A stretch of DNA of 37,728 nt, from positions 4,446 through 42,173 of the forward strand of contig CAZHGG010000001.1 in NCBI GenBank assembly GCA_964531755.1. The letters are read 5' to 3'. Positions 4,962-24,357 of this stretch are shown piece by piece; position 1 is the first letter of the stretch; every line of letters starts with the position of its first letter. Under the pieces are notes generated by a model. The model saw only the letters and a program-made list of their open reading frames with translations, was not told where the DNA came from and did no database searches. The position numbers and the translations under genes are program-made. This DNA comes from an uncultured Polyangiaceae bacterium. Lineage in GTDB: Bacteria > Myxococcota_A > Polyangia > Polyangiales > Polyangiaceae.

Positions 4962-4992
4962 AGTCTCGCCTCACGCACGCGGAACTCGAACG

Positions 4993-7955: not shown

Positions 7956-9062
7956 TCATCGGCCGCCGCGAGTCCCCTTGACCGCCGGTGCGCCCACAAC
8001 AGCATCGATGTAGTCGCCGGGTAGCCCGCGAGCTGTCGCGCCGTCGACGATGAGCCTCAGGTAATCCTCCGTCGGCCCACACCCGTCCGGGCACCTTGCC
8101 TTCGCGACGAACGTGAAGACCTCGACCGGCTGCGCGTCCCCTCCTCCTGTCACCCGCCACGCGGTCATCTCGCGCTTGGCGTAGCCCCCTTCGCGCCGGG
8201 CGAGCTCGACCGCGTCCTCGGGTGGAACGCTGTAGAGGAAGCCCCACACCATCGAACACGCGGACGTCTCGATGCTCGCGGCGTCGCATCGCCGAGTGAC
8301 GCTGTGCTTGTTGAACACCAGGCGGTGACCCGGCAGGAACGCAATGCCCTCGGCGCGCGCGTTCGGGGCCTTGGCCAACATCTCGCGCTCCGCGAGGTTC
8401 GACCCGTAGGCGAAGTAGGTCTCGGCGGCTTCCCATTCAATCGGCTGCCCCGAAGCCGGTAGCACGAGCCCGCTAAGGGCGTCCATGCGCTGCAGGAACG
8501 CTTCGCGAAGGTGCGGTGCACCGGTGGAGAGATCGCGGACGTATTCGCCGACCTCCGCCTGGATGGCCTCGTGGAACAGCCTCCTGTTGAGGATTCGCGT
8601 CTTGGCGCCCGCGACCTTCGTCAACATCTCGGGAGTGTCGACCCGAACCTTCCAGTCGCCGCGAGTCTCTCCGTTGTGGAGGAGCCCGTTGCGAACGTCT
8701 TGGAAGCCCCAGCGATCGTTCCCGGAGAAGCACGAAAATCGCGGCCCCTTCAGGAATGTGCGGAACGACTTCGCCGTCGTGTTCTCCCCAGTGGTCACGC
8801 GACCTTCGCGGAACGCCTGGAGGGTGTCGATCAGGAGGCAGTCGAGGGCCAAGATCGCGAAGCCAGGAACCAGGCCGTCCCTGCGCCCTGTGCTCGCGAG
8901 GGTGGCGATCGGCCCGAGGAATCGCTCGTCGAGGCGCCGCCGAACGGCGGCCACGACCTCCACCCAGGCCGCGTCGTCGGAGTGTGCGCCTTCCAGGCGG
9001 CCGCGAAGCTCGAGGTAGCGGCTAACCGGGAAACCCGATGCAAGCTCGGTCGTCAGATCCAT
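7956..9062 (-). CDS. Two-domain protein: N-terminal alpha-helical domain with an HEPN-type RNxxxH motif, and a C-terminal gamma-glutamylcyclotransferase (AIG2/GGCT-like) domain.
   Basis: ATG at 9062 overlaps the upstream gene's stop by 10 nt. RNGLLH is encoded at 8676-8693 (CGC AAC GGG CTC CTC CAC on the minus strand). The C-terminal YFAYGSNLAEREMLAKAPNA...GHRLVFNK...VWGFLYSVPPEDAVELARREGGY...EVFTFV follows the YGSL/GGCT-fold pattern (about 7990-8420). Confidence 0.8.
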   Translation of the reverse strand: MDLTTELASGFPVSRYLELRGRLEGAHSDDAAWVEVVAAVRRRLDERFLGPIATLASTGRRDGLVPGFAILALDCLLIDTLQAFREGRVTTGENTTAKSFRTFLKGPRFSCFSGNDRWGFQDVRNGLLHNGETRGDWKVRVDTPEMLTKVAGAKTRILNRRLFHEAIQAEVGEYVRDLSTGAPHLREAFLQRMDALSGLVLPASGQPIEWEAAETYFAYGSNLAEREMLAKAPNARAEGIAFLPGHRLVFNKHSVTRRCDAASIETSACSMVWGFLYSVPPEDAVELARREGGYAKREMTAWRVTGGGDAQPVEVFTFVAKARCPDGCGPTEDYLRLIVDGATARGLPGDYIDAVVGAPAVKGTRGGR

Positions 9063-11701
9063 CGTCCGAGCTCGTTTCTCGCCTGCACGCGCCCTGTAGG
9101 CTCAATACCCCAAGCATGGGCCGCCGCTCGAGCGGCGACGGCATACTTCGAGTCCGCGAGCCATCTCCGCCGCACGACGTCATTGCGCCTCTGGCGAAGG
9201 TACTGTGAAAGCTCGGAGTTCGCCCGAACGAAGTCCGCTAGATGAACGACATCGCCCTCTGGCCCAGTGGCGAGAGGAAGGTCGAGAGTACTTGTCGAAT
9301 ACTCCGGGAGACGGTCCCTTTCCTCGGCCCTGTAGAGGAGCCTCATCCACAGCGAGATCCAGCCGAGAATCTTCTGTCCATCAACTGTTCCACTATGAAG
9401 ACGAACTTCGATCGTGCCCATCCCTCGTTCGTCAAATAGTGGGCGAGGATTAACGGTAAGATATCTTCGACTCAGGTGCTCTAGAAAGTGTTTCTGCCAG
9501 TCATCCATCGTCGGGAAAGACAACAGTTGTTCAACATGCTGTCGAATCGGCTCGCAGCTCGGGTTCCATCCGCGCGACGGAGCGACCAGGCTGTAGAGCG
9601 CAGGCTCATAGTATGAAACTAGCTGCATGAGCCTTCGCAGCGCACGAAGGTCCTTGTTCCACGCGAAGTGAACATGGGTTCCCGTCTTCGGAGTGCTGAC
9701 CGACAGCCCGAGGCGTTTTGCTGCCGACTGAAGAGCATTGCAGGCTCGAACGACTTCTCGGTACCCGGCCTCCCCGCGCAATATGCGACTCGTCACTTCC
9801 CATCCGCAGCTGCTGTCCCACTCGACGTTCCACACCTCGTGGTTCTTGTCTTGTTCGTGATACTCCTCGCGGGGCTGCGCTGCCCTCTCTGTCTGGGGAA
9901 TCGACCGAAGCAGCGCGGTCGCGACCCTTAGCCAGTCAGGAGGCTTCTCGCCCGTGAAGTCGCTTCGGGTAAACTCAAATTCGATTCCGAAGTCCTGCTT
10001 CGGCTGAAGGTCGAAGCCAGCGATGCCCTCATACCCTTCGCAGAGCGCTATGTGCTCGAAGCGGGCCGGCTCGAAGGTGTACATTGGCGCTCGCGTCGCC
10101 GACTTGCCGCCCCGGCTGTCCGACCCCATCGGGTCGAAGAAGTGCTTGGGGGAAACAAGGACGTCGCCATGACGCGTCAAGGCGTCCTCGAAGTCGACGA
10201 TTCGGAACCCGTCCTTTCCTGGCGCCTTCCTCACTGCACGGCCGACCATTTGCGCAAACAGCGTCATGCTCGCCGTCGGGCGGGCCAAGAACACGGTCTT
10301 GATGCCGGGGATGTCGATGCCGTGCGTCATCATAGCGACGTTCACGAGGACGCAGGTGCGCTTCGTCTTGAACAGGTCGATCGCGGCGCGCCGCTCTTCG
10401 GGCCGCAGCGCCGAGTGGACCACGCCAACGGCAACGCCGCGCATCTTCAGCGCAGAAAATAGTCCCATCGCGTGCTGGATGTTGCAGGCAAAAATGAGCG
10501 TCTGCCCGTACCGCTCCCTGCCGTTGATGTAGGTGTCCACGATCATCCGAGTGCGTCGAGGGTCGTTCGCGAGCTCCGTGAGCGACGCCGTAGTAAAATC
10601 GCTGTAGCTGCTTCGCCGTACAGGGGCCCACGAGACGCGAGTCTTCACCGGAGGCTCTGGAAGCCTCGGCGCGAGCACGTCCATCCTTGCCAGGGTCGGG
10701 TAGTCGTATTCGCAGCCAACGAGGCGGAAGCCCGTCCCTTGGCGCGGCGTCGCCGTGAGGCCAACGAAGACGGCCTCGGGGTATGCCTTGAGCAGCCCGC
10801 GGTACGCCTGCTTGCCCTCACCCCAATGAAGCTCGTCGATGATCACGGTGTCGAAGGAGACCCCGGCGAAGTCCTTGTGCTTGCGGCGCCGCCACATGTG
10901 AATTGTCGTGTACGTGACGACGGCATCCGACCGAGGCGTGCGGCCGAAGAACTGGGCGGGCTCGCCCACGTGGCCAACGTATGCGCGCTTCCACCGTCGG
11001 CAGAGGTCGGTGGCCGCCTGCCGCAGGAGCGCCCAGTCCTTGGTGATCCAGAGGACGCGCCGTCCTTCCGTCAACGCGTGCGCGCCGATCCAGTCGTTGG
11101 CGATACGGGTCTTCCCTCCGCCCGTGGCCACGGTGATTCGGAGCCGACTTCGTCGAGTCGCGCGTGCTACCGCGAGCGCGAGCTCGCGCGTCAGCTCGCG
11201 CTGAAACGAATAGGGCTCGAAGCGCGAAGCCTCCTCGTTGAACTCAAGGTCGGAGGGGTCGGAGTCGTCTTCCAGGTCGTCAGGTGCCGAGTCGTCGTCG
11301 TCGAGGGCCTGCAGTCCGTCATCGGACTCTTGCTTCTCTTCGTCCTCTTCCGCTGCCGCGCTTCCCGACCCCGCGAAGCTCGAGAGTCGAACGAGCTCTG
11401 GAGGTGCCTGATTGTCGCGGAAACAGGCGAGCGCGATCCGAACGAGTTTGGCCTTGGAGTAAGTCGCATCCGGGAGGTGATAGGTCCCGCCGTCGCCGTC
11501 CGTGAGGTTAGCGAGAAGCACGCGGAGGTCCTGCTCGCGCAGGTCCCCAAAAAGTCGTTCATGGTCACCCCGATACGAACGCGCGAGCCGCTCGCGCTTC
11601 GCGACGATGCCGGCCTCCACGCCTCGAACGCGACATAGCCGGTCGATCGCGGCTCGGTCCGCGATCTTCAAGACGTCCAAGAGACTTCGGATCGTGACCA
11701 T
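9053..11701 (-). CDS. Fusion protein: N-terminal HeH/SAP-like segment and acidic linker, SF2 helicase (type III restriction res-subunit-like), and a C-terminal Amidoligase_2 (glutamine-synthetase-fold COOH-NH2 ligase) domain.
   Basis: ATG at 11701 is preceded by GGAGG. Helicase motifs: ITVATGGGKT (Walker A), VIIDELHWG (DExH), GLTATP, QMVGRAVRK (about 10171-11209). The C-terminal domain (about 9316-9991) reads FGIEFEF, WNVEWDSSCGWEVTS, GTHVHF, GTIEVRLHSGT, which matches the order and pattern I recall for Pfam Amidoligase_2. Confidence 0.85.
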   Translation of the reverse strand: MVTIRSLLDVLKIADRAAIDRLCRVRGVEAGIVAKRERLARSYRGDHERLFGDLREQDLRVLLANLTDGDGGTYHLPDATYSKAKLVRIALACFRDNQAPPELVRLSSFAGSGSAAAEEDEEKQESDDGLQALDDDDSAPDDLEDDSDPSDLEFNEEASRFEPYSFQRELTRELALAVARATRRSRLRITVATGGGKTRIANDWIGAHALTEGRRVLWITKDWALLRQAATDLCRRWKRAYVGHVGEPAQFFGRTPRSDAVVTYTTIHMWRRRKHKDFAGVSFDTVIIDELHWGEGKQAYRGLLKAYPEAVFVGLTATPRQGTGFRLVGCEYDYPTLARMDVLAPRLPEPPVKTRVSWAPVRRSSYSDFTTASLTELANDPRRTRMIVDTYINGRERYGQTLIFACNIQHAMGLFSALKMRGVAVGVVHSALRPEERRAAIDLFKTKRTCVLVNVAMMTHGIDIPGIKTVFLARPTASMTLFAQMVGRAVRKAPGKDGFRIVDFEDALTRHGDVLVSPKHFFDPMGSDSRGGKSATRAPMYTFEPARFEHIALCEGYEGIAGFDLQPKQDFGIEFEFTRSDFTGEKPPDWLRVATALLRSIPQTERAAQPREEYHEQDKNHEVWNVEWDSSCGWEVTSRILRGEAGYREVVRACNALQSAAKRLGLSVSTPKTGTHVHFAWNKDLRALRRLMQLVSYYEPALYSLVAPSRGWNPSCEPIRQHVEQLLSFPTMDDWQKHFLEHLSRRYLTVNPRPLFDERGMGTIEVRLHSGTVDGQKILGWISLWMRLLYRAEERDRLPEYSTSTLDLPLATGPEGDVVHLADFVRANSELSQYLRQRRNDVVRRRWLADSKYAVAARAAAHAWGIEPTGRVQARNELGRWI

Positions 11702-11751: not shown

Positions 11752-14700
11752 CTACCCGTCGTCCCCCTCAGGCACCTTCACCTTCCCCTTCGTCGTGGAC
11801 GCCACGCCCATCGTCTCGAGCTCCGCCCCTGGGGCCAACGATAGCGTGCGCGCGACGAACACCTCGCGTCGGCCGCTCGCGTGGCTGTACGAGCACGACA
11901 GCACCGGCGCGAGCGAAATCGGTGCTCCGCTGGGGCGGAGTAGGTAGCACCAGTTCTCCAGGAGCTTGCCTTGGACCCGTTCCTCGCGGACAGGGAAGTG
12001 ATCACTCCCGCCTTGAAGCACGCGAACCTGGTAGCGAGCCGGGCCGCCCGACACGTCGAAGTCCTGGAGAACGACGCGGACCACAAGCTTGAGCTCGGAG
12101 AGCCCCTCGAGCGCCTGCTCGAAGCGACGCCAAAGGGCATGCAACGCGTGCTCAGCCTGCGCGACGGCCTCCTCGTTCCGCGTGACCGCGTGAGAGAACA
12201 CGTTTCGCGCTGGAACGACCGTTTCGAAAATCTCCTTCGTGAGGTCCGACTGCTTCCCGTCGGCCGTCACCAGCGCACGACCTGGCCGGCTCGCCGGGTC
12301 CAAACCTCCCGGCGGCAACAATGCCGCCAGGCGCCACGCGAGCTCGAGCCAGGTGCCCATCGAGATCGGGCGGCGCAGGTCCTCCGTGATGAGCACGCGT
12401 GCTTGTTCGGGCAGTTGGCCGTCGTTGGTCGAACGGAGAAGCCCAAGCTCGACACCCACCAAGAACGTGAGCGCCTTCTCGAAGGCATCTCGCAGGGTCT
12501 TCACGCGAAGGACGACGTTCTCCTGACTCTCCACGAGGCCGTCGAACACGGCGATGGGATACGGAAGCACGCTTGGAGTCGACGTACCCGATGCCGGAGT
12601 CGTAGCAAGCGCAACATGAGCAGAAGACCGCGCCGCCGGAAGGACCTCCACGGGAAGCTCCGGAACCGCCGGTGGGACCGCCTCCGCGGCCCGTTCCGGA
12701 GCGGCGACCACCTCTTCCGCCACGTTCGCGGCGGAGAGCTCCCGAGCGCCCCCTAGCTCGCGCAGGACAGGCACGTGGTGCCCACACGCCTGCCCCAGCC
12801 AGCGCACGGTCCCCGCCACGTCCAGGAGGTAGCTCTCGACCACCTCCAAGGCGAACTTCTCGGGCAAGCAGTCCTGGAACTTGGAGAGCCGATACTCGGG
12901 CAGCCTCGCGAGCACCGCTCGCCGCGTGTCCGGGTCCGACCAGAAGGCCGGTGTGGCCATCCGCGCGATCGCCTTCCGGACGCTCTCGTGCCCAATTCCG
13001 TCGCCATCGATTCGGAGCTGAAAGTTGTCCGCCATCACCTTCCAACCCTCGGCCACCTCGAAGCCGTACTTGAGAGTGTGGTTCACCTGCCCGCCCGCGA
13101 ACGTCCACCAGAGCGCGACGCCCCCATCGAGCTGCACGGCGTGCCCATCGCGCCGAAGGAGCTCACCGAGATCGGCGCGCTTCTCCTCGATGTGCTTCCA
13201 CGCCACGTCGTCCACATACGGGTAGCGCGCGCTCTCGGTGAGGGCGCGCTTCATGCGCTGGCAGACATCGAGCCCGAGGTGCTGCGGGAGGTAGCCTCCC
13301 CAGCTTGGCTTCATGCCACGCGGCGCCTCGCGAACGACCACCTCACGATCTTCGTGGCTCACGCGGTCGACTGTCCATGCACGGCCACCAAGCAAGAACG
13401 AGCTCATTTGCTCGACCAGGCGATCGACGAAGCCCTGCTCCAGCGAGCCGACATCTCGCCTCGTGTGCCTGACGACTCGGTAGAGCTTCGGCGACGAGAA
13501 CACCGCGTAGAGCTCCAGGAAGTTCTTCTTCCCGAAGCGCTTCTCGGCCTTCTCGCCCATCGAGAGGAGCCCGTCCGCCTCGAAGAGGAACTGCTCCTTC
13601 TTCATGTGAAGGATCGCTTCGTCGTACTCCGCGCGAGTGATGGCGCGAAAGTCGGGCACGCGTGCGAGCTGCTCCCAGATGCGGTCGGCGCCAATGGCGC
13701 CGAACTGGAGCGTCATCGCGAGCACCTGGTGCACCAAGACAGGCCAACATCGCTCCTGCTTGGTCACGCGCTCGACCCACCCCTCGCGGGCGAGCTCGAC
13801 GAGCGCGACCGCCTGGAGCACGGACTCGGGGTCTTCGCAGAGGAACGCCGTGTTCGGACGCGTGCCCGCGCGCCTCCCCGTCCGGCCCATGCGCTGCATG
13901 AAGGACGAGACCGTGCTCGGCGCGTTCGCCTGGAAGACGAGATCGAGATCGCCCACGTCGATGCCGAGCTCGAGGGTCGACGTGCACACGATGCACGCGT
14001 TCGTCCCGTGGGCGAAGCGATCTTCGGCGGCCCTTCGCTCCTCCAACGAAACCGAGCTGTGATGCACGAACACGTCGATCTCGCGCCCGCGCATCCTCTC
14101 GGCGACCACCTCGGTGAGCGCCCGCGACTGGCAGAAGAACAAGCTCTTCTTGTTCGACGCCCGTCTCGCGGCGGCGGTCGCGACACCCGCCACGCTCTCG
14201 TGAAGTCCGATGGAGAGGTCGCGCTTGGCGGGGATCTTCGGCGGATCGACGACCACGCCCTCACGCTTGGACGAACCGCCGAGCCACGCGAGGATGTCGT
14301 GGGGATTGCCCACGGTGGCCGACAGTCCGACACGCTGAAGATCGTTTTGGCTTAGCGGCGCGAGTCGCTCGAGGACCGACATCAGGTGCGCCCCGCGATC
14401 GGTCCCCGCGAGCGCGTGAACCTCGTCGATCACCACGAGACGAAGGTCCTTGAAGAGCCGAACCACGGGGGAGCGAGGCGACACGAGCATGACCTCGAGC
14501 GACTCCGGCGTGGTCATGAGGATCTCGGCGGGCTCCCTCACGAACCGACGCCGCTCACCATCGGGGACGTCCCCGTGCCAGACGAAGCGCCGCAAGCCGA
14601 CCATCTCGGCGTACGTCCCGAGCCGCTCCTCCTGGTTGTTCAACAGGGCTTTGATGGGCGCGATGTAGAGGACCCCCACGCCGTCGGGCTCGCGCTCCAC

Positions 14701-14889
14701 CAGGCCCGCGAGCGCGGGGAAGATGGACGCTTCGGTCTTTCCTCCCGCGGTGGGCGCGAGCGCGACGACGTTCTTCCCGTCGAGGATGGCCTCCCCAGCG
14801 AGCTCCTGCACAGGGCGGAGCGAGGTCCACCCGAGGCGCGAGACGATCGCCTGTTGAAGGCGGGGCGGAAAGCGGGCGAACGCGGTCAT
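11752..14889 (-). CDS. brxHI: BREX Lhr-like DEAD/DEAH helicase BrxHI with a non-helicase C-terminal extension of about 330 aa.
   Basis: The N-terminus, FPPRLQQAIVSRLGWTSLRPVQELAGEAILDGKNVVALAPTAGGKTEA, is Lhr-type. Further motifs: VVIDEVHALAGTDRGAHL (DEVH), LGIDVGDLDLVFQ, FMQRMGRTGRR. ATG at 14889 overlaps the upstream stop (ATGA). Its position after brxD matches BREX types 2 and 6. Confidence 0.85.
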   Translation of the reverse strand: MTAFARFPPRLQQAIVSRLGWTSLRPVQELAGEAILDGKNVVALAPTAGGKTEASIFPALAGLVEREPDGVGVLYIAPIKALLNNQEERLGTYAEMVGLRRFVWHGDVPDGERRRFVREPAEILMTTPESLEVMLVSPRSPVVRLFKDLRLVVIDEVHALAGTDRGAHLMSVLERLAPLSQNDLQRVGLSATVGNPHDILAWLGGSSKREGVVVDPPKIPAKRDLSIGLHESVAGVATAAARRASNKKSLFFCQSRALTEVVAERMRGREIDVFVHHSSVSLEERRAAEDRFAHGTNACIVCTSTLELGIDVGDLDLVFQANAPSTVSSFMQRMGRTGRRAGTRPNTAFLCEDPESVLQAVALVELAREGWVERVTKQERCWPVLVHQVLAMTLQFGAIGADRIWEQLARVPDFRAITRAEYDEAILHMKKEQFLFEADGLLSMGEKAEKRFGKKNFLELYAVFSSPKLYRVVRHTRRDVGSLEQGFVDRLVEQMSSFLLGGRAWTVDRVSHEDREVVVREAPRGMKPSWGGYLPQHLGLDVCQRMKRALTESARYPYVDDVAWKHIEEKRADLGELLRRDGHAVQLDGGVALWWTFAGGQVNHTLKYGFEVAEGWKVMADNFQLRIDGDGIGHESVRKAIARMATPAFWSDPDTRRAVLARLPEYRLSKFQDCLPEKFALEVVESYLLDVAGTVRWLGQACGHHVPVLRELGGARELSAANVAEEVVAAPERAAEAVPPAVPELPVEVLPAARSSAHVALATTPASGTSTPSVLPYPIAVFDGLVESQENVVLRVKTLRDAFEKALTFLVGVELGLLRSTNDGQLPEQARVLITEDLRRPISMGTWLELAWRLAALLPPGGLDPASRPGRALVTADGKQSDLTKEIFETVVPARNVFSHAVTRNEEAVAQAEHALHALWRRFEQALEGLSELKLVVRVVLQDFDVSGGPARYQVRVLQGGSDHFPVREERVQGKLLENWCYLLRPSGAPISLAPVLSCSYSHASGRREVFVARTLSLAPGAELETMGVASTTKGKVKVPEGDDG

Positions 14890-15662
14890 GCGCCGCGCAA
14901 GCGCTGGTCAGTCTCGTTCATGAGACTCACGAACCTATCCATGGCCTCTTCACGGCGACTGAGAGCGTAGTCGAGCCACTCCTCGACAGAGGCATCCGAG
15001 GGCTCGTTGCTAGCCGCCTCCAGCCGAACGTGCATTCGATAGTGCTTGTAGTGGGGTTCAAGCGTTGCGAGCCCAATGCCGAACCGCTGGCACTCGCGAA
15101 CCACCTTGTCGAGCCTTGGATCCGAGAGCGTGAATCCCTTCTCTGGCCACTCCAGGAGGACGAACCCCTCGTGCGCGAACCGTGCGTGCGAAGCTGCTTC
15201 AAAGACAGCGTTCACGTCCCATACGCCCCACTGCTTAACTTCGAATGTCGTCAGCAGAACGCGGCGCTTGCGAAGCGTGGGATAGACCTCGACCGACACC
15301 TGAGTCACGTCGGGATTTTGCCACTTCCCCCGCTTGCGTAGCGACGCCGTGTCGAACGCAAGGCTCTCTGGTGAGTCTCGCTGAATGGCATCGACAAGCG
15401 GCGCGTATAGGTCCTTCTCCTTCTCGACCGAGGAGGTCGTTTCGTACTTGGGCGAGACCTCCCGCTCGCCCTTCCTCGTGAGACGTAGGCCGCCACCACG
15501 ACAGACGTACTTCTCCGCAAGTTCTTCGTGGATGACAGAGGCGCGAACCTCGTCGTAACGCTCATCGCCAAGGCTCAGCTCGAGCTTTATTCGTGCATTG
15601 GAGAGTCCGCCAGTCTCGGCCAGAAGATTCAGAACTCGCTCGCGGTCGCTGGGTCGTGCCAT
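14886..15662 (-). CDS. Hypothetical protein with an N-terminal winged-helix-like domain and a PD-(D/E)xK nuclease-like core. It is a non-canonical insert between brxD and brxHI.
   Basis: ATG at 15662 lies 3 nt after the brxD TAA, and the stop overlaps the brxHI ATG. The N-terminus, RERVLNLLAETGGLSNARIKLELSL...RLTRKGE, looks wHTH-like. The core reads E..LYAPLVDAI, then NPDVTQVSVEV, then TTFEVKQW (D118, E141-x-K143; about 15234-15311). The gene is visibly less GC-rich than its neighbours. Confidence 0.65.
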   Translation of the reverse strand: MARPSDRERVLNLLAETGGLSNARIKLELSLGDERYDEVRASVIHEELAEKYVCRGGGLRLTRKGEREVSPKYETTSSVEKEKDLYAPLVDAIQRDSPESLAFDTASLRKRGKWQNPDVTQVSVEVYPTLRKRRVLLTTFEVKQWGVWDVNAVFEAASHARFAHEGFVLLEWPEKGFTLSDPRLDKVVRECQRFGIGLATLEPHYKHYRMHVRLEAASNEPSDASVEEWLDYALSRREEAMDRFVSLMNETDQRLRGA

Positions 15663-15665
15663 TGT

Positions 15666-17036
15666 TTAAAACTCCACGGAGGTTTCGGGATAGCCCTTCT
15701 CGTCGTCGGGCTCGGGATCGTACGGGATGGCCTTCTTCCCCTCCGAGGCGCGCTGCTCTTCGATGGTATCGGGTCGCGGGGGCAGCGGAGGCAGCGGGGG
15801 CAGCCGCATGTCCGGGTTCTCTACCACCCAATCGAAGTCGTTCACGAGTCGCCTCATGAACTGCCTCGGGACCACTCCAACCTCGCCGCCCAGTCCCTTC
15901 GACACGTGGTCCACGAGCTGCTCGATCCGCTCGGGTGTGACGTTCTTCGCGACGATGTTCGGATCACCCCCTGGGTAGAGCTCGCGGAGGCGAAGCCCGA
16001 CGTCCTTCAGACGCGCTCGGTCGAACGGGCGCAGCTCGAGCTGCGGCTGCCGCATCGTCACGAGCCCTCCCTCGTTGAGAAAGCGGATACGATCGTGGAG
16101 CGGCTGGAGGCCCGCCACTCCGCGCCGCGTGTCGAAGAACTCCGGCGTCCCGGTGAAGACCCAGAGCAGACCCTCGAAGCTGTCCGCGTTGTCGATGATC
16201 TGACGAATGCCGTTCAGCGACTTGCCACGAACGTCGCCGCGCATCCGAAGGATGGTTTCGGCCTCGTCGACCACGACCACGAGCCCTTCGTAGCCGGCAG
16301 CCTTCACCACGGCGAGGATGCCGCGGAGGTAGTGCATCGCGTCGGTGCTCGTGATCTCGCCACGGATACCCGCGCTCCGCTTCTCGGCCGCGCTCACGTT
16401 TTCGCTCCCCGAGAGCCACGAGAGCAACGCGCCCGCTTCGCGCACCTTCCCGGCTTGCTTCAACGAGAAGATCTCACGAAGCACGCGGCCGAGGTCTTCG
16501 GGCGCCTTCCCGCCGGTGAGAGAGCGAATGTCCTCTTCGATTCGCTTCTGCACCTTCTGGTCGAAGTCCGGAGCGCTCTCGTCCGCGCCGCCTGCGACGA
16601 GCGCGTTCTCCACCTTCGCGATCCATCGGTCGATGATGTCGCCGAGCGCGCCGCGAGGGCATGAGCTGGTCCCGAGCTCCTGGACCACGCGGCGGTAGAG
16701 GTCCTCGAACTTGTGCAGGTGAAAGTCGTTGTCGGAGACCACCACGAAGCTCGTGGCGAACCCCAAGCCCGGCGTGCTCGTGGGCGCGGGCGTGGGCGTT
16801 CGTCGATAGTGCTGCGCGTCGAGCACCGCCAGCCTGGCCATGAAGGTCTTCCCGCAGCCGTATCCGCCACGCAAGAACTTGAAGACCCCTTCGCCGGACG
16901 CCGCCAACGTGAGGAGTCTCGTGATCTCGGCGTGCTGCCTCTCGACTCCGACAGCAAACGCCTCGAGCCCGCGCTCCGGGACGACTCCGGAGCGAAGGCG
17001 CTCGAAGATGTGCTCGCGATCTCGTTGGCTTATCAT
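15666..17036 (-). CDS. brxD: BREX ATP-binding protein BrxD (DUF2791 P-loop ATPase).
   Basis: The internal ATG at 17036 overlaps the pglZ TGA (ATGA). The N-terminus reads MISQRDREHIFERLRSGVVPERGLEAFAVGVE...FKFLRGGYGCGKTF (Walker A), with VVVVDEAE as Walker B. The 135 codons upstream in the ORF track are Arg-rich and overlap pglZ. Confidence 0.85.
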   Translation of the reverse strand: MISQRDREHIFERLRSGVVPERGLEAFAVGVERQHAEITRLLTLAASGEGVFKFLRGGYGCGKTFMARLAVLDAQHYRRTPTPAPTSTPGLGFATSFVVVSDNDFHLHKFEDLYRRVVQELGTSSCPRGALGDIIDRWIAKVENALVAGGADESAPDFDQKVQKRIEEDIRSLTGGKAPEDLGRVLREIFSLKQAGKVREAGALLSWLSGSENVSAAEKRSAGIRGEITSTDAMHYLRGILAVVKAAGYEGLVVVVDEAETILRMRGDVRGKSLNGIRQIIDNADSFEGLLWVFTGTPEFFDTRRGVAGLQPLHDRIRFLNEGGLVTMRQPQLELRPFDRARLKDVGLRLRELYPGGDPNIVAKNVTPERIEQLVDHVSKGLGGEVGVVPRQFMRRLVNDFDWVVENPDMRLPPLPPLPPRPDTIEEQRASEGKKAIPYDPEPDDEKGYPETSVEF

Positions 17037-19891
17037 CGGTCTCCTTCTCGTATGTAGACCTTGCCGGCGTCGTTGATCTCGACCCGCACCCGGAATGGCA
17101 ACTTCGGGAAATAGCTCTCGAGCTCGCCGGAGAACCTTCGGACCGCCCGTGGCGACCCCAACATCGTGGGACCCGCAAGCTCGACCTCGGTCACGCGTCC
17201 GTGGGTCTCGATGTGAAGGAACGCTCGGCGAACGCCCTCGTCGCCGATGGCGTCGCCCCACGCGAGCGGCGGCGCCGGGCTGGAGGCGCCCCGCGCCGTG
17301 CTCGCGCTCGCCGTTCCGCTCACGGCGTACCACTGCTCGGGGATGGCGCTCTGCACGTTCTCGATGTTGTCCGGATGGTGGACCTCGAGGCGGACGCGCT
17401 CGTCGGTGTCCCCCTCGAGTCCAAAGAAGACCTCGGTCCACGCCTCACCCACCGGGACTTTGAGGCGGCCCAGCTTGAGCTCGCCCGGACCGGCCAGGTC
17501 CTTGAACACGACGCGGACGGGGTAGCGCGGGTCCCGATCAGGAACGCGCACACCGAGGTCGATGGTCCCAGCGGCGGCGAACCCGAGGCTCGCGGTCGTC
17601 TCCTTGGCGAAGCCGATGCGGAGGCGCAGGCGATGACTGCCCATCACGTCGGGCAGGGGCTCGACCTCGATCGCGTATTCGGAATAACCGCCCTGCTCGG
17701 CACGCTTTCGCGTCACGGTGAGGACCGGGATCACGCGCTCTTGAGGGCTATTCCCTCCGTGAACGAACGAGGCTCCGCTGTTGCCCGTGGCGAACACCGC
17801 CGTGTCCTCCCGGAAGAGCAGGTAACCCGAGATCCCCTCGTAGCCGAGCGACGACACCGACACCGGAAGCATGCCGGGCTCGGCACGGGGGTGCTCGTCG
17901 AGGACGTGGCGGCGCTGCGGATCGGCCTTTCTTCCGAACGGCCGGATCTCGGTGGTCTCGTCTTGTAGGAGGAAGCCGTGGTCCGCGGTGAACACGCAGC
18001 TCTTCACCCCCGCGAGCTGGAGGTGATGCCAAGCGGCCTTGATCTGTCGGAGCGTGGACTCGAACGTGGGCAGTCCGACATTGGCTTCCCCAGCGTCGTC
18101 GATCGCCCGGGAATGCACGACGACCAGCGCGTGCGGCTTCACCTTCCGGATCAGGTCCTCCGTGTGCGCGTCGCAGACCTCCGCGAGCTTGAGGAGCAGC
18201 GCCGGCTTCTGGCTGCTGCGCATTCCCATCGAGCGTGAGCGATCTTCGGGCTTTCGGACCGTGTATTCGCCCGTCTTGAATCCCTGAAAGACGCCATCCA
18301 CGAGGAGCTTGCCGCCCTGCACGACGGGAGCGAGGGCGTTCATTCCCACCGATGTGAGGGTGGGCAGCTCGGCGAGGCGAGGCTTCAGGCTCACGATCGC
18401 GCCGGGGCCTCCCAGCTCCGACGCGAGCTCGGTCGCCATCTCGAAGCGAAACGCGTCGATGAGAAAGACGGCGACCTTCTCCCCCGTTCGCGTCAGAGGA
18501 TGAACGGTCTGCTCGTAGAGAGTCCGCTGTTGCAGCTCGGGCGAAGGCAGGAAGCCGTGGTCCTTGCACAACTGCGAGAAGTCTCTGGCGAGCTGGTCGG
18601 CCCAGGTTCGGTGGGCGCGGCGCAGCTCGCTGGCGACCTCGCGGAGGGCGCTGTAGTGGGGCAGGCGTGACTCGAGGAGCGCGAGTCGCCGTTGCTCGAA
18701 CTTCCTGTGCGCGAAGTCGACCTTGTAGGCTCCGGACGCGTACCGTTCAGCCGCCTCGTCGAGGCTCCGGGCACCGGCGAGGGGGCGTGGGTATTCAGCA
18801 ATCCGCGCTCCGAGATCGGCGGCGTCTCCGACGAGGGTCCACTCCCAGCGCCTCGGCTGCTCCCGCTGAAGCCAGAAGGACTTGCCGCCCTGGCGCGCAT
18901 CGCACCACGCCTTGGCCTTCGCGAACTCGCCCTTGCGGAGCGCGTCGACCGCGCCGGTGAGGACGCGAGTGGCCTCCTTCCGAAACGTGTCGATCTGCCC
19001 AAGATCGTCGGCCGTCATCGTCGAGAGCTCCTCCTCGAGGAACCCTTCGACCTCATTGGCGAGGCGCTCGTAGGCGTCGCCGTGATCGCGGCGAATCTGC
19101 GCGCAGAGATCGCCGCACGCCTTCACCAGGGGGATCGACAGGCTCTTCAACCTTCGGAGGTGTTCGTTGTGCGCCGGGCGGCGGAGATCGTGGACGTACT
19201 CGACGGAGAGGATCCAGCCCCCGAGCTGGTGGAGAATGCGGTCGAGAGGTTTGGCCTTCGCGTCGCCCTGGTAGAACGCCTCCCAGGCGGTGTCCATGCC
19301 GGTGAGTCGGTGAACGTAGCTCGCGAGCGTGGCGATTCCTTCGGGAGTGGCCACGTCCGGTGCGAGGCCGCCCGGATCGGAGAGCGCGTCCGCGAGCATC
19401 CTCGGGCCAAACTCGGAGAGCTTCGCGCCGAGGCCGAAGGTGCTCTGCGACGCCGCGGACACGAGCCACGCGTCCGCGGCCTCGAGCGTCGGCTTCCCTG
19501 CGAGGAACGCGTCGACCTCGGCGGGCGCCATCCGCGCGGTGGCAGCCTCGCGGATCAGGGTGTCGAGCGCCTTCCGAAATCGGAAGCCGGGGGCATAGAG
19601 CTCGAGCAGCGGAGTCTTGCGGATGGACTCCTCGTTGAAGCCCGGCATGTGGACGAGGAGCGGATGTTTGTCGAGGCCGCTGCCGTACGGCTCGAGCTTG
19701 AAGAGCAGCTCCAGGAAGCTCCCGCGGAAGCCCACCACCGGGAACGGCGTCTCGCCGCTCGCCTGCTTGGCCTCCAGGCCGCGCACGAAGGCCGTGTAGT
19801 GGGCGTCTTTGTCGAGCCACACGACGATGCCCTGGCGCCGGATCTCGTCGGCGAGCTCTTGTTCGAGGAGTGTCGAGACGGGGCCGCTCAC
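17033..19891 (-). CDS. pglZ: BREX alkaline-phosphatase-superfamily protein PglZ.
   Basis: A 952-aa protein placed between pglX and brxD. The N-terminus IRRQGIVVWLDKDAHY and the central block VAVFLIDAFRFEM...VVVHSRAIDDAG...FTADHGF are consistent with a PglZ domain. The start is a GTG at 19891, so start confidence is moderate. Confidence 0.85.
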   Translation of the reverse strand: MSGPVSTLLEQELADEIRRQGIVVWLDKDAHYTAFVRGLEAKQASGETPFPVVGFRGSFLELLFKLEPYGSGLDKHPLLVHMPGFNEESIRKTPLLELYAPGFRFRKALDTLIREAATARMAPAEVDAFLAGKPTLEAADAWLVSAASQSTFGLGAKLSEFGPRMLADALSDPGGLAPDVATPEGIATLASYVHRLTGMDTAWEAFYQGDAKAKPLDRILHQLGGWILSVEYVHDLRRPAHNEHLRRLKSLSIPLVKACGDLCAQIRRDHGDAYERLANEVEGFLEEELSTMTADDLGQIDTFRKEATRVLTGAVDALRKGEFAKAKAWCDARQGGKSFWLQREQPRRWEWTLVGDAADLGARIAEYPRPLAGARSLDEAAERYASGAYKVDFAHRKFEQRRLALLESRLPHYSALREVASELRRAHRTWADQLARDFSQLCKDHGFLPSPELQQRTLYEQTVHPLTRTGEKVAVFLIDAFRFEMATELASELGGPGAIVSLKPRLAELPTLTSVGMNALAPVVQGGKLLVDGVFQGFKTGEYTVRKPEDRSRSMGMRSSQKPALLLKLAEVCDAHTEDLIRKVKPHALVVVHSRAIDDAGEANVGLPTFESTLRQIKAAWHHLQLAGVKSCVFTADHGFLLQDETTEIRPFGRKADPQRRHVLDEHPRAEPGMLPVSVSSLGYEGISGYLLFREDTAVFATGNSGASFVHGGNSPQERVIPVLTVTRKRAEQGGYSEYAIEVEPLPDVMGSHRLRLRIGFAKETTASLGFAAAGTIDLGVRVPDRDPRYPVRVVFKDLAGPGELKLGRLKVPVGEAWTEVFFGLEGDTDERVRLEVHHPDNIENVQSAIPEQWYAVSGTASASTARGASSPAPPLAWGDAIGDEGVRRAFLHIETHGRVTEVELAGPTMLGSPRAVRRFSGELESYFPKLPFRVRVEINDAGKVYIREGDR

Positions 19892-19984: not shown

Positions 19985-22900
19985 TCAGGCATCGGCGCCC
20001 TCGCCCTCGTCGTCCGAAGCCTCCCCGTCGAACAGCGGGCCGGCACCTGCGTCGTCTCCCTCATTCTCGGCGTCGGCCTTGGCGTTCTTCTTCTCGCGCC
20101 GCTTCATCTCCTTCGCGAGCGCCTCCTGCGCCTCTTCGGCGTGCTCCGCCAAGAACCGCGCGCGGGCCTCGTCGGAGCCGGGCTCGTCGATCGTGAAGTC
20201 GGGACGAATCTCGTCTTTCAGGCGCAGCTCCCACGCGTACGCCTTCGCGGGATGAAGCTCCCAGAAGCACCCGTGGGCGACGGCGAGCGAGGGGTCTTCA
20301 TGGCACTTCGCGCGCACGCGCGTGGGGAAGTAGCGCGCGGCCAGATGGGACCAGTCGTAGTCCTTCTTCGCCCCTCCACCTGCGGGCGCGTTCGCGAGCT
20401 CTTTCCACCACTTCTTGGGGTCTTTCCACTGCGGCTCGAGGAGCGGCCAGAGGGCGGCGCTGTTGACCATCACGCCGTCGTCGAGGTCCATGGCGAAGCG
20501 CGCGTCGCGCTCGCGGGGTTGGGTCTTGTCGTCCGACGGAGGAGCGCCCTTCTCGGCCAGCTCGGTGACCTTGGCGATGAAGTCGCCGAGCTCTTCGGTG
20601 AGCTTCTGCACCTCGGTGAAGCGCTTCTCGGCCTTGCTCTTCGCGGCGCCCGTGGCGTTGCTGGCGGCGCGCGCTGTGCGCAAGTCGTCGAGCTCGCCCT
20701 CGAGGCGGCGCTTCGCGGGCATCAGGTGATCGGCGAGCAGCACGTTGAGTGTGTCGTCGGCCCATCGGTGGATGGAGACGAGCGCCACGAAGGATCGCTT
20801 CGAGGACGAGAGCGGGAAGTAGATGGGGCGGTTTTCGTAGAGCTTCTTGTGGAAATCGAAGAACGATTTGCGGAGGTAGGTGCGGAGGGAGTCCCCTTGG
20901 CCGACGTGGGCTCCGTGCCCTTTCCAGGCTTCGAGGAGCGGGGCGCAGGCGGGGAGATCGAGCGAGTCGGGGCCTTCAGGGGAGACGAAGAGGAGCGGCA
21001 CGCCCGAAGGAGGGCCCTCCAAAGGGAACCGCCCAAGCGCCAAGCCGACCGCGAAAGACACATGGTCCTCGGGCCGCGCAGTCTCGTAGACAGGCTCGTA
21101 GGGAGGGAGCGGGGCCCCCTCGGGGCGGTCCACGGCGAGCTGGGCCCAGGCCTGGGCGTAGGTCCACGCGGAGGGGCCGGGGGAGAGGAATTCCACGGAG
21201 GGCTCGCGGTGAGATTCGTGCTCGGAGAAACTCGTGTCGAGTGTGGAGAAAATGGTCTCCGTCTTCGACAAGGGAAACAGCGGCAGGCGTGCGACGTCAG
21301 AAAGCTCAAAGTGAACCGACGGATTGAAGTCCGACAAGAGTCGGCGAGCTCGTAAGCTGTTGAGTACGCACACCACGTAGTGACTCGCGGCACCGGCAAA
21401 CACCGTCGACCCCACATTTGAAAACACGCTGGGATATCGGTGGGATCTTGCGGAGAATGTCGCGCCCGTGGTGCAGAACGCTATCCCAGGTTCGAAGTAC
21501 TTGGATTCGCTCGGAATGTACTTCGATATTGAACGGTAGGCATGCTCGTGTCGGACTTTCATCTCCAGTCCCGTTGCATGCCACCTGAGCACGACCGTGA
21601 GTGGCTCAATCCACTCGCGACCCTTGGCGCCCGTAATGAAGGCTACCCATCCGTCGCGCTGCGCGGTCTTCGGCGCGAAAACGGGCACTTCCCACGCCAT
21701 TCGGACGTAGCGAGGGTTGTCCTGCGTCGCCATGCCAGCACGACCCGAGTATTTGCTACCGAAGCTAGGCAACTCACGGTACTCGGCAAGAAATTCCCGC
21801 GACCACCAATAAACAACCGGCTCCCCCTCGATGACCCCAAACCCCCGCGGGTCGAACTCGAACCGCCCCACCTGAGCCAACACCGCCGCCCGCTTCCTCC
21901 CGGTCCGCGCGCGATCGTACGATCGGTCGTCCAACGGTGTCGGCTGCGTCGCGACGCTCGGCACACCGGGATGGGGAGCCCGCCGGAACACTGGGACGGA
22001 TACAGCGAGAACCTCATTGGGAACTTCATCGAAGGCGCCTCGATCGAAGTCGCCGATGGACCGGAGGTCGTACGTCTCCAGGAGACGTTTCCGCAGCTCC
22101 GCAAACTGCCCCAAGAACATCCACCCCCGCATCGTCACCAGCGCCGAGATCCCGCCCTCCCGCACGAACTCGAGCCCCCGCTCCAAGAAGGCGGCATACA
22201 AATCCGCCTTCCCCCGCGGATAGTGCGTCGCCACATACCCGAACGCCCCCGAGGCCTTGGTGAGCCCCTGGTACGGCGGATTCCCCACGACCACGTCGTA
22301 CGCGCCCTCCTTCGCGAGCCGCACGAAGCGCACCCCGGCGGCGAGCTGCTCTCCGTCGAGCCGGAGGCCCAGGTCCTCCGAGCGCGAGTGCCCGGCGAGG
22401 AACACCTCGAGCTTGTCGAGCACTGTGGCCTTGGCCTCTTCGGCAGTCATCTTCACCGCCTCGGTGGCGAAGCCCCCGAAGAGGTCCCCCTGGCCGTGCG
22501 CGCGGAGGAGCTCCACCTCGACGTCTCGAATGGCGCCCTCCACCGCGGCGTCCACCTTGAGCAGCGAGCCGAGGTAGTCCACGCCCGCGAGCGACGTGAG
22601 GAGCTTCTGCGTGAGCTCCTCCGGAATGCCCACTTCGCGCTTCAAGTCACGCCGCAGCGCCGAGACCGCCGGATCGTCGGCCGGGAGATTCCCGAGCTGA
22701 AGCACCGGCGCCACGAGGTTCACGCGCTTGGGCCGGCAGCCCTTGGCGAGCGACTTGGCCTTCAGAAAGAGGCCCGCCGCGGCGATCTGGATGGCCCGAG
22801 GGTCGATGTCGAGCCCATGAAGGTTGTTCTCGAGGATCGACTCGGCGATGGCCTTGTCGGTGAGGTCGGCGCCGAGGTGCCGCGCCTCCTCCCGGTACAT

Positions 22901-24094
22901 CGCCACGAGCAGATCGAACGCAATCACCAAGAAGTGCCCGCTCCCACACGCGGGGTCGAGCAGCTTGATGTCGCGCACCGACCGAGGCGCCCGCGCCACC
23001 GCGTCGTCGGGGATGGCCTGGGGTACGTAATATTTCCAGTGCTCCTCGAGCTCGCCCTCGAGCGGCATCAGCGCGTCGAGCGGCATCTCCCCCGCCTCGC
23101 GCTTCGCTCGCCACTCGGCACGACGCGCGTCGAGCAGGGGCAACACACGCTCGGCGTCCGCGGTCCACCCGTGCTTCTTGCACATGGCCAGCCACGTGAG
23201 GCCGAGGCTGTTCTGGAGGAGCCACTCCACCATGTACCGCTCGGTGAACATCTGCGTCTTCGAGGCGATTTCGTGCGGCTCGATCTTGCCGCCCCCGGCG
23301 ATCTTGTCGTCCAGCGCCTCGCGGTCCGGATCGTTCCAATACTGGTAGACCCAGCCGAGGGTCGTCTCGTCCTGCCAGGCGCTCTCGAGCCCGGGGTCGT
23401 CCAGGCGCTCGACCACCTCGCGCAGCGTGGCCGCGGGAATGCCGAAGAGCCGCGTGAGCCCCACGTCGCCGAAGAGGCCCGGCAGGTCCACTGCCAGCTC
23501 GTCGAACACGAGCTGGAGCAGCACCGCGTAACCCTCGGTCTCGTCGTTCGTTCCCCCGCCGCAGAGGGCCGGCGCGAACTCGCGAAGCTCGCGGTAGCCT
23601 TTGCTGTTCCAGCCGCCGGTGAGCACAGCGGGCTTGGAGAGCCCGAGGGCCTCGAGCTGGCGCAGGAGCACGAGCCGGTTCAGCAGGGTCGCCGCCGCTT
23701 CTTTCTCGGCCTGCGCGAGGAGACGCTCCTTGATGGCCAAGAGCTCGCTCGGGCGAACGGGGGCGCCGGCCTTGGCGGGCTTGGCCGACTTGCCGGCCTT
23801 GGCGGGCTTGACGGAGGCCGAGGAGGCCGAGGGGGTGGGAGCACCGAAGCCGGCCCGCGCCCGCGCGTCCAGAGTGGCCTCGATGCGCAGGCGTCGCTCT
23901 CGGTGCGCCTCGTCGAGGCCTGCCTTCTCGAGGGGAACCGAGAGCCGGTAGCGCCGATCGGCCTCGTCGTGAATGGCACGCAGAAGCCGCGCGCGGAGTC
24001 CCTTGTTCGCGCTGTCGTGCGACGAGGTGCCGCGGATAGTCTCGGCGAGGAGCTTCTTGGCTTCTGGGGTGAGGCGAGGGAGGTCGTTCACCAT
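19985..24094 (-). CDS. pglX: BREX adenine-specific DNA methyltransferase PglX.
   Basis: Motif I is LLDPACGSGHFLV and motif IV is VVGNPPYQG. Size is about 1369 aa. The ATG at 24094 (MVNDLPRLTPEAKK) overlaps the stop of the upstream small ORF by 1 nt (TGATG). The 77 further upstream codons in the track are Arg/Gly-rich and I reject them. Confidence 0.92.
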   Translation of the reverse strand: MVNDLPRLTPEAKKLLAETIRGTSSHDSANKGLRARLLRAIHDEADRRYRLSVPLEKAGLDEAHRERRLRIEATLDARARAGFGAPTPSASSASVKPAKAGKSAKPAKAGAPVRPSELLAIKERLLAQAEKEAAATLLNRLVLLRQLEALGLSKPAVLTGGWNSKGYRELREFAPALCGGGTNDETEGYAVLLQLVFDELAVDLPGLFGDVGLTRLFGIPAATLREVVERLDDPGLESAWQDETTLGWVYQYWNDPDREALDDKIAGGGKIEPHEIASKTQMFTERYMVEWLLQNSLGLTWLAMCKKHGWTADAERVLPLLDARRAEWRAKREAGEMPLDALMPLEGELEEHWKYYVPQAIPDDAVARAPRSVRDIKLLDPACGSGHFLVIAFDLLVAMYREEARHLGADLTDKAIAESILENNLHGLDIDPRAIQIAAAGLFLKAKSLAKGCRPKRVNLVAPVLQLGNLPADDPAVSALRRDLKREVGIPEELTQKLLTSLAGVDYLGSLLKVDAAVEGAIRDVEVELLRAHGQGDLFGGFATEAVKMTAEEAKATVLDKLEVFLAGHSRSEDLGLRLDGEQLAAGVRFVRLAKEGAYDVVVGNPPYQGLTKASGAFGYVATHYPRGKADLYAAFLERGLEFVREGGISALVTMRGWMFLGQFAELRKRLLETYDLRSIGDFDRGAFDEVPNEVLAVSVPVFRRAPHPGVPSVATQPTPLDDRSYDRARTGRKRAAVLAQVGRFEFDPRGFGVIEGEPVVYWWSREFLAEYRELPSFGSKYSGRAGMATQDNPRYVRMAWEVPVFAPKTAQRDGWVAFITGAKGREWIEPLTVVLRWHATGLEMKVRHEHAYRSISKYIPSESKYFEPGIAFCTTGATFSARSHRYPSVFSNVGSTVFAGAASHYVVCVLNSLRARRLLSDFNPSVHFELSDVARLPLFPLSKTETIFSTLDTSFSEHESHREPSVEFLSPGPSAWTYAQAWAQLAVDRPEGAPLPPYEPVYETARPEDHVSFAVGLALGRFPLEGPPSGVPLLFVSPEGPDSLDLPACAPLLEAWKGHGAHVGQGDSLRTYLRKSFFDFHKKLYENRPIYFPLSSSKRSFVALVSIHRWADDTLNVLLADHLMPAKRRLEGELDDLRTARAASNATGAAKSKAEKRFTEVQKLTEELGDFIAKVTELAEKGAPPSDDKTQPRERDARFAMDLDDGVMVNSAALWPLLEPQWKDPKKWWKELANAPAGGGAKKDYDWSHLAARYFPTRVRAKCHEDPSLAVAHGCFWELHPAKAYAWELRLKDEIRPDFTIDEPGSDEARARFLAEHAEEAQEALAKEMKRREKKNAKADAENEGDDAGAGPLFDGEASDDEGEGADA

Positions 24095-24357
24095 CAGCGA
24101 CGCTCGCTCGCGAGTGCGCCGCCCACGGCCTCGGTGCCGGGAACGGGGGGAATGAGCGAAGCCTGGAGCTTCGCGAGCTGCGCGGAACGCTCCACGGTGA
24201 AATACATCTCTCGACACGACGTACACGTCGGAACCGCGAAGGAGTCCGGGATCGGGAGAAACATCCCACGGCGGTATTCGGCCGCTCGGCCTGGCCCGGA
24301 GGTAAGACCCACCTCGGCTCCACACTCGGCGCAGCGAAACGGCTGAAAGTCACTCAT
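24094..24357 (-). CDS. Small (87 aa) four-Cys zinc-ribbon protein between brxC and pglX. It is not a canonical BREX gene.
   Basis: MSDFQPFRCAECGAEVG...AVPTCTSCREMYF gives a CxxC...CxxC arrangement. The stop overlaps the pglX ATG. An alternative GTG start at 24462 would overlap the brxC stop (GTGA), but it adds an Arg-rich, low-complexity 35 aa. Confidence 0.55.
   Translation of the reverse strand: MSDFQPFRCAECGAEVGLTSGPGRAAEYRRGMFLPIPDSFAVPTCTSCREMYFTVERSAQLAKLQASLIPPVPGTEAVGGALASERR

Follow-up and report, generated by a model that had tools for sequence, protein, structure and literature searches.

The window analyzed here is a stretch of 37,728 nt from an uncultured Polyangiaceae bacterium (contig CAZHGG010000001.1), and all positions below are given in window coordinates. 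It carries a bacteriophage exclusion (BREX) operon in which an open reading frame (ORF) on the reverse strand lies between brxD and brxHI. This ORF, called gene X in the following, encodes a protein of 258 amino acids (aa) that is predicted to combine a winged helix-turn-helix (wHTH) with a PD-(D/E)xK nuclease domain. We propose that it is a captured endonuclease gene which could provide the operon with an extra nucleolytic layer. The features of gene X are the following:

14886-15662, reverse strand: gene X, 258-aa wHTH and PD-(D/E)xK (MmcB-like fold) predicted endonuclease (ORF and translation, homologues, AlphaFold2 model)
15459-15662, reverse strand: N-terminal wHTH, residues 1-68 (DSSP of the model: helices 6-17, 22-29 and 33-45, beta hairpin 49-61)
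15150-15419, reverse strand: predicted PD-(D/E)xK catalytic core, residues 82-171 (model, alignment, Foldseek)
14895-15119, reverse strand: C-terminal subdomain, residues 182-256, made of a helix, a beta hairpin and two long helices (model and alignment)

Between the brxD stop codon TAA (15666-15668) and the gene X ATG at 15662 stand the letters "aca", a gap of 3 nt, and the TGA of gene X shares an ATGA with the brxHI ATG at 14886-14889. A GGAG stands 9 nt 5' of the gene X ATG. Since no promoter- or terminator-like signal was seen between gene X and its neighbors, the gene is probably co-transcribed with them. A sequence-only reading of this DNA had already described the length of the ORF, the gap and the overlap as they are given here, together with a series of nuclease-like motifs. 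Translation and alignment indeed place P117-D118, E141-V-K143 and E155-A-A-S-H159 where that reading had put them, and three of the codons were checked by hand: gac for D118 (15311-15309), gaa for E141 (15242-15240) and aag for K143 (15236-15234). Those for E82 and E155 lie at 15417-15419 and 15198-15200, respectively.

Our homologue search returned 94 clusters, labelled hypothetical, and the ratio of nonsynonymous to synonymous substitution rates (dN/dS) of the embedded gene is 0.06-0.18, the mark of strong purifying selection. These two results exclude a chance ORF: gene X is a real gene, and its DNA recurs in several independent activated-sludge metagenomes. Its G+C content is 0.602 and its G+C content at third codon positions (GC3) 0.710, against 0.659-0.676 and 0.854-0.887, respectively, for BrxC, PglX, PglZ, BrxD and the core part of BrxHI, in agreement with the lower G+C that had been noticed by eye.

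Predicted fold and family of the gene X product

AlphaFold2 was run on the family alignment for the full protein, which was modelled with a predicted local distance difference test score (pLDDT) of 91.4. Because the Foldseek search with this full-length model was dominated by MarR matches, residues 75-258 were folded again separately, and the resulting domain model reached a pLDDT of 94.4. The winged helix superposes on MarR, ZitR, NadR and PcaV with a root-mean-square deviation of 1.2-3 Å over ~65 residues (Foldseek). It is also the sole part of the protein detected by a profile search against PDB sequences, with ZitR at E 0.005-0.03. Weak N-terminal Pfam matches to HTH_24, Rrf2, MarR, DUF7343 and wHTH models were found among 46 relatives; for these together with 10 distant longer relatives, the only Pfam matches are weak N-terminal ones of the wHTH, DUF7343, Rrf2 or DUF5343 kind. 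The winged-helix-like N-terminus proposed from the sequence is thus borne out by profile, structure and relatives.

The core of the domain model has the order alpha-beta-beta-beta-alpha-beta (DSSP-type elements: helix 82-96, strands 101-104, 119-127 and 132-143, helix 150-160, strand 165-171). E82 opens alpha1, D118 directly precedes beta2, E141-V-K143 closes beta3, E155 is located on alpha2 and E171-W172 at beta4. When the domain model was compared with the PDB using Foldseek, the best match was 3dnx (E 1.3e-4, template modeling (TM) score 0.61), followed by SfsA, MspJI, archaeal Hjc and BsmI; 3dnx has been classed as PD-(D/E)xK (PF06319/COG5321) in a survey of the superfamily (PMC3424549). 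Among predicted viral structures, the best match was an "MmcB-like DNA repair protein" (E 2.9e-7, TM 0.71), and further matches comprised several other MmcB-like entries, VRR-NUC, Cas4, YqaJ and a resolvase. The leading matches of these searches all belong to the PD-(D/E)xK superfamily. The model thus displays both the fold and the motif that define the superfamily, the motif residues standing at the right structural positions, and we consider the PD-(D/E)xK assignment secure for the predicted structure, as the sequence-only reading had anticipated.

The nearest branch of the modelled fold is MmcB-like, by structure alone and without a link at the level of hidden Markov models. Indeed, scans of the gene X protein against Pfam, NCBIfam, PADLOC and PHROG found no model that covers the nuclease domain, and PF06319 gave no Pfam match at E<=10 for this protein, nor at E<=0.1 for the 46 relatives. 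MmcB-like proteins (PF06319/COG5321; 3dnx) resemble the gene X product in their PD-(D/E)xK core, with a TM score of up to 0.71. However, they are single-domain proteins of ~145 aa, mostly alphaproteobacterial, whereas gene X adds the N-terminal wHTH and a C-terminal helical subdomain. The latter contains conserved residues (C191, R193, F194, G195, G197) and could possibly form a dimerisation or partner surface.

Within this large family, constraint is strongest at the putative active site. Residues that are invariant in 46 members include E82, G112, W114, N116, P117, D118, E141, K143, E155, A157, E171 and W172, and the catalytic positions E82, P117-D118 and E141-x-K143 are also invariant in 23 truncated sequences. 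Among 54 diverse relatives, down to 21% identity, the sole invariant columns are E82, L85, P117, D118, E141 and K143. An exhaustive search with a profile of the nuclease domain retrieved 1196 representatives (50% identity clusters) at E<=1e-3, of which 594 at E<=1e-10, with the nuclease domain always C-terminal and preceded by N-terminal regions of 75-260 aa. Distant relatives (P0123, P0127-P0138, P0161, P0182 and others) have longer N-termini, which are DUF5343, Rrf2-like or unannotated over 140-260 aa. The family therefore consists of a variable reader module joined to a C-terminal nuclease, and is covered by no curated model. Such constraint favors catalysis over a decayed fold, and it renders unlikely the idea, raised as an alternative in the sequence-only reading, that gene X is merely a DNA-binding specificity factor. 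Only one distant locus was found in a scan of 2.9 million viral contigs; the family is almost absent from them and is therefore not a phage gene family.

Host operon, embedded copies and solitary copies

The other genes of the operon were identified as follows:

15666-17036, reverse strand: brxD, ORC/Cdc6-type AAA+ ATPase (Pfam BrxC_BrxD 4e-116, PADLOC BrxD 6e-151), directly upstream of gene X
11752-14889, reverse strand: brxHI, Lhr/Ski2-like superfamily 2 helicase (PADLOC BrxHI 2e-291 over residues 1-701)
17033-19891, reverse strand: pglZ (Pfam and PADLOC)
19985-24325, reverse strand: pglX (Pfam and PADLOC)
24459-28109, reverse strand: brxC/pglY (Pfam and PADLOC)
about 28138-28800, reverse strand: brxB (Pfam and PADLOC)
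29617-30207, reverse strand: brxE (Pfam and PADLOC)

The order brxE, brxB, brxC/pglY, pglX, pglZ, brxD, gene X and brxHI, with strong Pfam and PADLOC matches throughout, is the layout of a BREX type 6 locus. The start of brxD at 17036 overlaps pglZ as ATGA. BrxHI of the window, with 1045 aa, is longer than its counterparts of L001 and L008 (700-704 aa) and of L024 (843 aa); these loci are introduced below. The difference corresponds to a lineage-specific C-terminal extension of ~345 aa (11752-12789, reverse strand) located behind an Ala/Pro-rich linker and without a Pfam match. The same island, at 7956-11701 on the reverse strand and 1-7866 on the forward strand, carries a helicase-amidoligase gene with an AIG2/GGCT partner downstream of brxHI, a DruE-like helicase and a DUF4145-kinase fusion.

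Whether other BREX-2/6 loci carry a homologue at this position had been raised as a question, and the answer is divided. Relatives of gene X sit between brxD and brxHI in five lineages besides that of the window, hence in six lineages, all BREX-6; none was present in the six plasmid loci that could be judged, as described below. The five other embedded copies are:

L001 (Sorangium sp. So ce385): 80% identity to gene X, 3-nt gap to brxD, 4-nt overlap with brxHI
L024/L025 (P0005): 78% identity, 2-nt gap, 4-nt overlap
L033 (metagenome contig): 78% identity, 2-nt gap at each junction
L008/L009 (P0011): 71% identity, 3-nt gap, 4-nt overlap
L030-32 (P0018): 64% identity, 1-nt gap, 4-nt overlap

Two of these loci show peculiarities of their own. 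In the BREX-6 locus of So ce385 (L001, 1-5827), two genes for PglX-like methyltransferases of 1324 and 1329 aa stand in tandem, with an 85-aa ORF between them. In L008, a McrBC pair is found directly downstream of brxHI on the opposite strand (13107-16348), so that this island already has a type IV system.

Most relatives are solitary. In all the other loci whose DNA was available, about 35 distinct ones at 29-71% identity to gene X, BREX genes are absent from the surrounding 4-10 kb or as far as the contig reaches. A conserved partner (a small upstream ORF, a methyltransferase or a helicase) was sought by all-versus-all BLAST of the flanking ORFs, and none was found beyond near-identical genomes. 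Several copies are close to mobile or defence DNA: one lies near an integrase on a Paraburkholderia plasmid, another, in Sorangium So ce887, has an integrase fragment, an HNH gene and an antitoxin nearby, and others stand beside a type I-E CRISPR-Cas system with transposases or beside an excisionase-like HTH_17 gene. On three contigs from different samples (L021-L023), a solitary homologue of 62% identity is preceded, ~55 nt upstream, by a gene for a protein of 425 aa with Peptidase_C14 (caspase-like) and FKBP_C domains. In L004 (3983-10783, on a contig shared with L034), a mutagenesis cassette made up of imuB, an acetyltransferase gene and dnaE2 is closely followed by a solitary homologue of 63% identity and its abutting 87-aa ORF, a single case in the ~35 loci.

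Acquisition of gene X and selection on it

We surveyed the brxD-brxHI junction in a small plasmid sample, namely eight plasmid-borne BREX-2/6 loci found via BrxD. The two genes are directly adjacent in 6/8 loci (five annotated, one by tblastn), with no gene between them. For the other two, both BREX-2, the helicase is missing from an incomplete PLSDB gene table and the junction was not judged. The BREX-6 plasmids of Aulosira, Pseudanabaena and Azospirillum (BrxD at 59-66% identity) have adjacent brxD and brxHI with gaps of 2-90 nt and without gene X, and adjacency was seen in 3/5 of the BREX-2 plasmid loci. The sequence-only reading was thus right to call brxD and brxHI normally adjacent. As 0/6 judged plasmid loci have a gene at the junction, the insertion is a derived, lineage-restricted feature, and gene X is accessory to one BREX-6 sublineage and outside the core set of BREX type 6.

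A maximum-likelihood tree unites the six embedded copies with five solitary ones in a single crown clade (11 sequences, support 99/98) that is nested within solitary lineages. One solitary copy, L029, lies inside the BREX clade. Well-supported branches force one gain only; the best tree requires three changes, so escapes from the operon or cassette swaps are possible.

The compositional deficit noted for the window is found in every embedded copy checked. GC3 of the gene X homologue is 0.69 against 0.91-0.96 for the flanking genes in L001, 0.59 against 0.78-0.83 in L008 and 0.73 against 0.86-0.88 in L024. The deficit relative to BREX neighbors is therefore 0.13-0.27 in all four loci (14886-15662 in the window; 10001-10777 in L001, L008 and L024), despite saturated synonymous divergence between lineages. 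Such a lasting deficit could fit either selection that keeps the expression of a dangerous enzyme low, or a cassette that has been replaced repeatedly. In the two loci nearest to the window, the nonsynonymous divergence (dN) of gene X, 0.125-0.138, is close to that of BrxD (0.141-0.145) and BrxHI (0.121-0.131), and in L008 and L030 it amounts to 0.23-0.30 versus 0.15 for BrxD. Because of the nested phylogeny, the GC3 deficit in every embedded copy checked and the empty site in related BREX-6 loci, we regard gene X as an acquisition, as had been suspected.

Possible roles of gene X in the operon

In their survey, Rakesh & Krishnan (NAR 2026; PMC12839542) cite a nuclease activity of PglZ and report that, of the auxiliary nucleases encoded within BREX and related loci, PD-(D/E)xK restriction endonucleases (REases) are the most frequent, beside GmrSD/HNH, OLD-TOPRIM, HEPN and other enzymes. 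The embedded REases are proposed there as auxiliary or backup effectors beside PglZ, and BrxD-BrxHI is described as a tightly linked dyad. The statement of the sequence-only reading that BREX has no identified nuclease is thus outdated. The embedded REases resemble gene X in being REase-fold genes inside a BREX operon with core genes on both sides. They differ from it in being standalone, or fused to HARE-HTH, ATPases, helicases or Shedu-type modules. Gene X thus fits the published category of accessory PD-(D/E)xK nucleases in BREX loci. What may be new is the particular family, which is unannotated and structurally akin to MmcB-like proteins, along with the insertion in the BrxD-BrxHI dyad and the recruitment from solitary mobile copies.

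Another nuclease embedded in a BREX operon is BrxU, a GmrSD-family type IV enzyme of a type-1 BREX locus, cited in PMC12839542 as a self-sufficient second layer of protection. BrxU is composed of DUF262/ParB and HNH domains, whereas gene X encodes a wHTH and a PD-(D/E)xK domain, and we saw no relation of sequence or fold between them.

Modification-dependent enzymes of the Mrr/DpnI type pair a DNA-reading winged helix with a PD-(D/E)xK domain for cutting, and they are solitary, without a methyltransferase partner. Gene X shares this two-module logic. An assignment to Mrr-type type IV enzymes was nevertheless rejected, for lack of any Mrr_N, Mrr_cat or PADLOC mREase_IV match. Several other candidates were discarded as well: HamA (no DUF1837 match in PADLOC or Pfam, and most relatives without a helicase neighbor), Shedu SduA (no DUF4263 match in Pfam or PADLOC), BrxR of the wHTH-WYL type (no WYL domain, and a gene located mid-operon rather than at the 5' end of the locus) and a type II restriction-modification endonuclease (no methyltransferase in the annotated flanks of solitary copies, and no conserved neighbor).

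The explanation that we favor, with a probability of roughly 0.55, is that gene X is a captured, self-sufficient wHTH-guided PD-(D/E)xK endonuclease serving as an extra nucleolytic layer of the operon. The protein would be a metal-dependent DNA endonuclease with E82, D118, E141 and K143 as predicted catalytic residues and E155 on the next helix, and its MarR-like winged helix would direct it to DNA. It would originate from a solitary, horizontally mobile family without an obligate partner, of which a copy would have been taken up, in one event or a few, between brxD and brxHI of a single type-6 BREX sublineage, to be co-transcribed and translationally coupled with its neighbors and kept by purifying selection. 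With a target recognition of its own and independently of BrxD and BrxHI, it could then cut invader DNA that escapes the methylation-based BREX core, much as BrxU does in its type-1 locus. Since most relatives are solitary and unrelated to BREX, the protein can evidently work without BREX. A minority of the homologues is linked to BREX, and the catalytic residues are invariant in all 54 diverse relatives aligned. As the solitary copies have no methyltransferase partner, the nuclease must either spare normal host DNA or be tightly controlled. Modification-dependent or structure-specific enzymes do spare normal host DNA.

Several observations weigh against this explanation. Inserted exactly in the BrxD-BrxHI dyad and coupled to either neighbor, gene X looks more like a functionally integrated component than like a passenger acting on its own. 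MmcB-like proteins, its closest relatives by structure, are tied to DNA repair and not to restriction, several solitary copies lie among metabolic genes instead of defence islands, and neither PADLOC nor the defence-family models match the gene X protein. Finally, the RNA runs looked through for the gene X sequence gave no match.

The insertion point is the basis of the alternative in which gene X is a BrxHI-binding subunit, loaded or activated by BrxD, that would cleave unmethylated BREX-site DNA. Such an effector would resemble HamA-HamB of Hachiman, the Cas3 HD-helicase or an Lhr-MPE pair. The dyad is uninterrupted in 6/6 judged plasmid loci and gene X sits exactly in it; the ATGA overlap with brxHI and the gap of 1-3 nt to brxD are kept in 4/5 of the other embedded lineages, L033 having short gaps on both sides; and in the nearest loci gene X matches BrxD and BrxHI in dN. 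In PMC12839542, moreover, BrxHI is called Ski2-like and likened to HamB, the Ski2-like helicase that Hachiman pairs with the PD-(D/E)xK-type nuclease HamA, and BrxD is proposed to load or activate BrxHI. However, the family is ancestrally solitary and partner-free, the L029 copy in the BREX clade is solitary again, and the gene X copies of L008 and L030 are far more diverged than BrxD, which suggests cassette exchange and not co-evolution with a binding partner. There is also no PADLOC match to HamA, and no Hachiman structure was among the top Foldseek matches. We therefore hold this alternative to be unlikely, although a serious contender. Its strongest form, in which the captured nuclease of this BREX-6 sublineage would now do the cutting for BrxHI, loaded by BrxD, in a helicase-nuclease machine that degrades DNA without the PglX mark, we find rather doubtful. 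If true, it would mean a form of BREX with a true restriction step and offer a tractable entry into the action of BrxD and BrxHI. The sequence-only reading had likewise suggested a mechanistically different BREX variant, a view left unsupported by relatives that are for the most part solitary genes unrelated to BREX.

The structural matches, MmcB-like for the best of them (3dnx at E 1e-4; the phage protein at E 3e-7 and TM 0.71) and including Holliday-junction resolvases, could instead point to an MmcB-type nuclease that acts in DNA repair or on particular DNA structures, and would for example unhook or nick damaged or branched DNA. As part of a BREX locus, it would either act on the intermediates that BrxHI generates from host or invader DNA, or be a mere passenger without a defence role. 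MmcB is linked to mitomycin C repair and thought to feed the ImuC/DnaE2 (imuB-dnaE2) mutagenesis pathway (PMC13705206); the L004 homologue downstream of an imuB-dnaE2 cassette and the solitary copies amid housekeeping or metabolic genes would agree with such a role. Yet that linkage occurs once in ~35 loci with no conserved neighbor, there is no sequence-level match to PF06319, MmcB proteins have no wHTH, and a gene that is patchily distributed, lies near mobile elements and was captured by a defence operon has the traits of defence cargo and not of a repair gene, so that a repair function appears improbable to us. Still less credible is a non-catalytic regulator or sensor resembling BrxR, whose wHTH would repress or tune the operon while the REase fold serves only for dimerisation or ligand binding. 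The wHTH is MarR-like, one Joint Genome Institute annotation of homologues reads "predicted transcriptional regulator", and BREX helicases are known to contain REase folds that are inactive (supplement of PMC12839542); on the other hand, no positions of the superfamily-level alignment are better conserved than the catalytic E/D/ExK residues, the gene lies mid-operon without free upstream DNA, and neither a WYL nor a ligand domain is present. We consider just as remote a selfish, free-standing homing-like endonuclease gene with its own drive and no benefit to BREX. It would account for a gene that occurs as a unit by itself across many unrelated contexts, for a GC3 below the surroundings in every lineage and for a phylogeny that hints at exchange between embedded and solitary copies. 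It is at odds with strong purifying selection and retention across lineages with saturated synonymous sites, with a seamless translational coupling that disrupts nothing, with the lack of accompanying repeats, intein/intron context or recombinase, and with the near absence from viral contigs.

How BREX stops phages is still debated, and we know of no role assigned to BrxD or BrxHI. That accessory PD-(D/E)xK nucleases occur in BREX loci has been published as a general idea, which limits the surprise. Nevertheless, a predicted nuclease translationally coupled to both BrxD and BrxHI, in loci that are also found in cultured Sorangium strains, provides a concrete genetic handle. Beyond BREX, the nuclease domain represents a large family (~1200 clusters at 50% identity) with an invariant catalytic motif, outside Pfam, NCBIfam, PADLOC and PHROG, and is therefore a candidate for a new family of solitary defence or repair nucleases.

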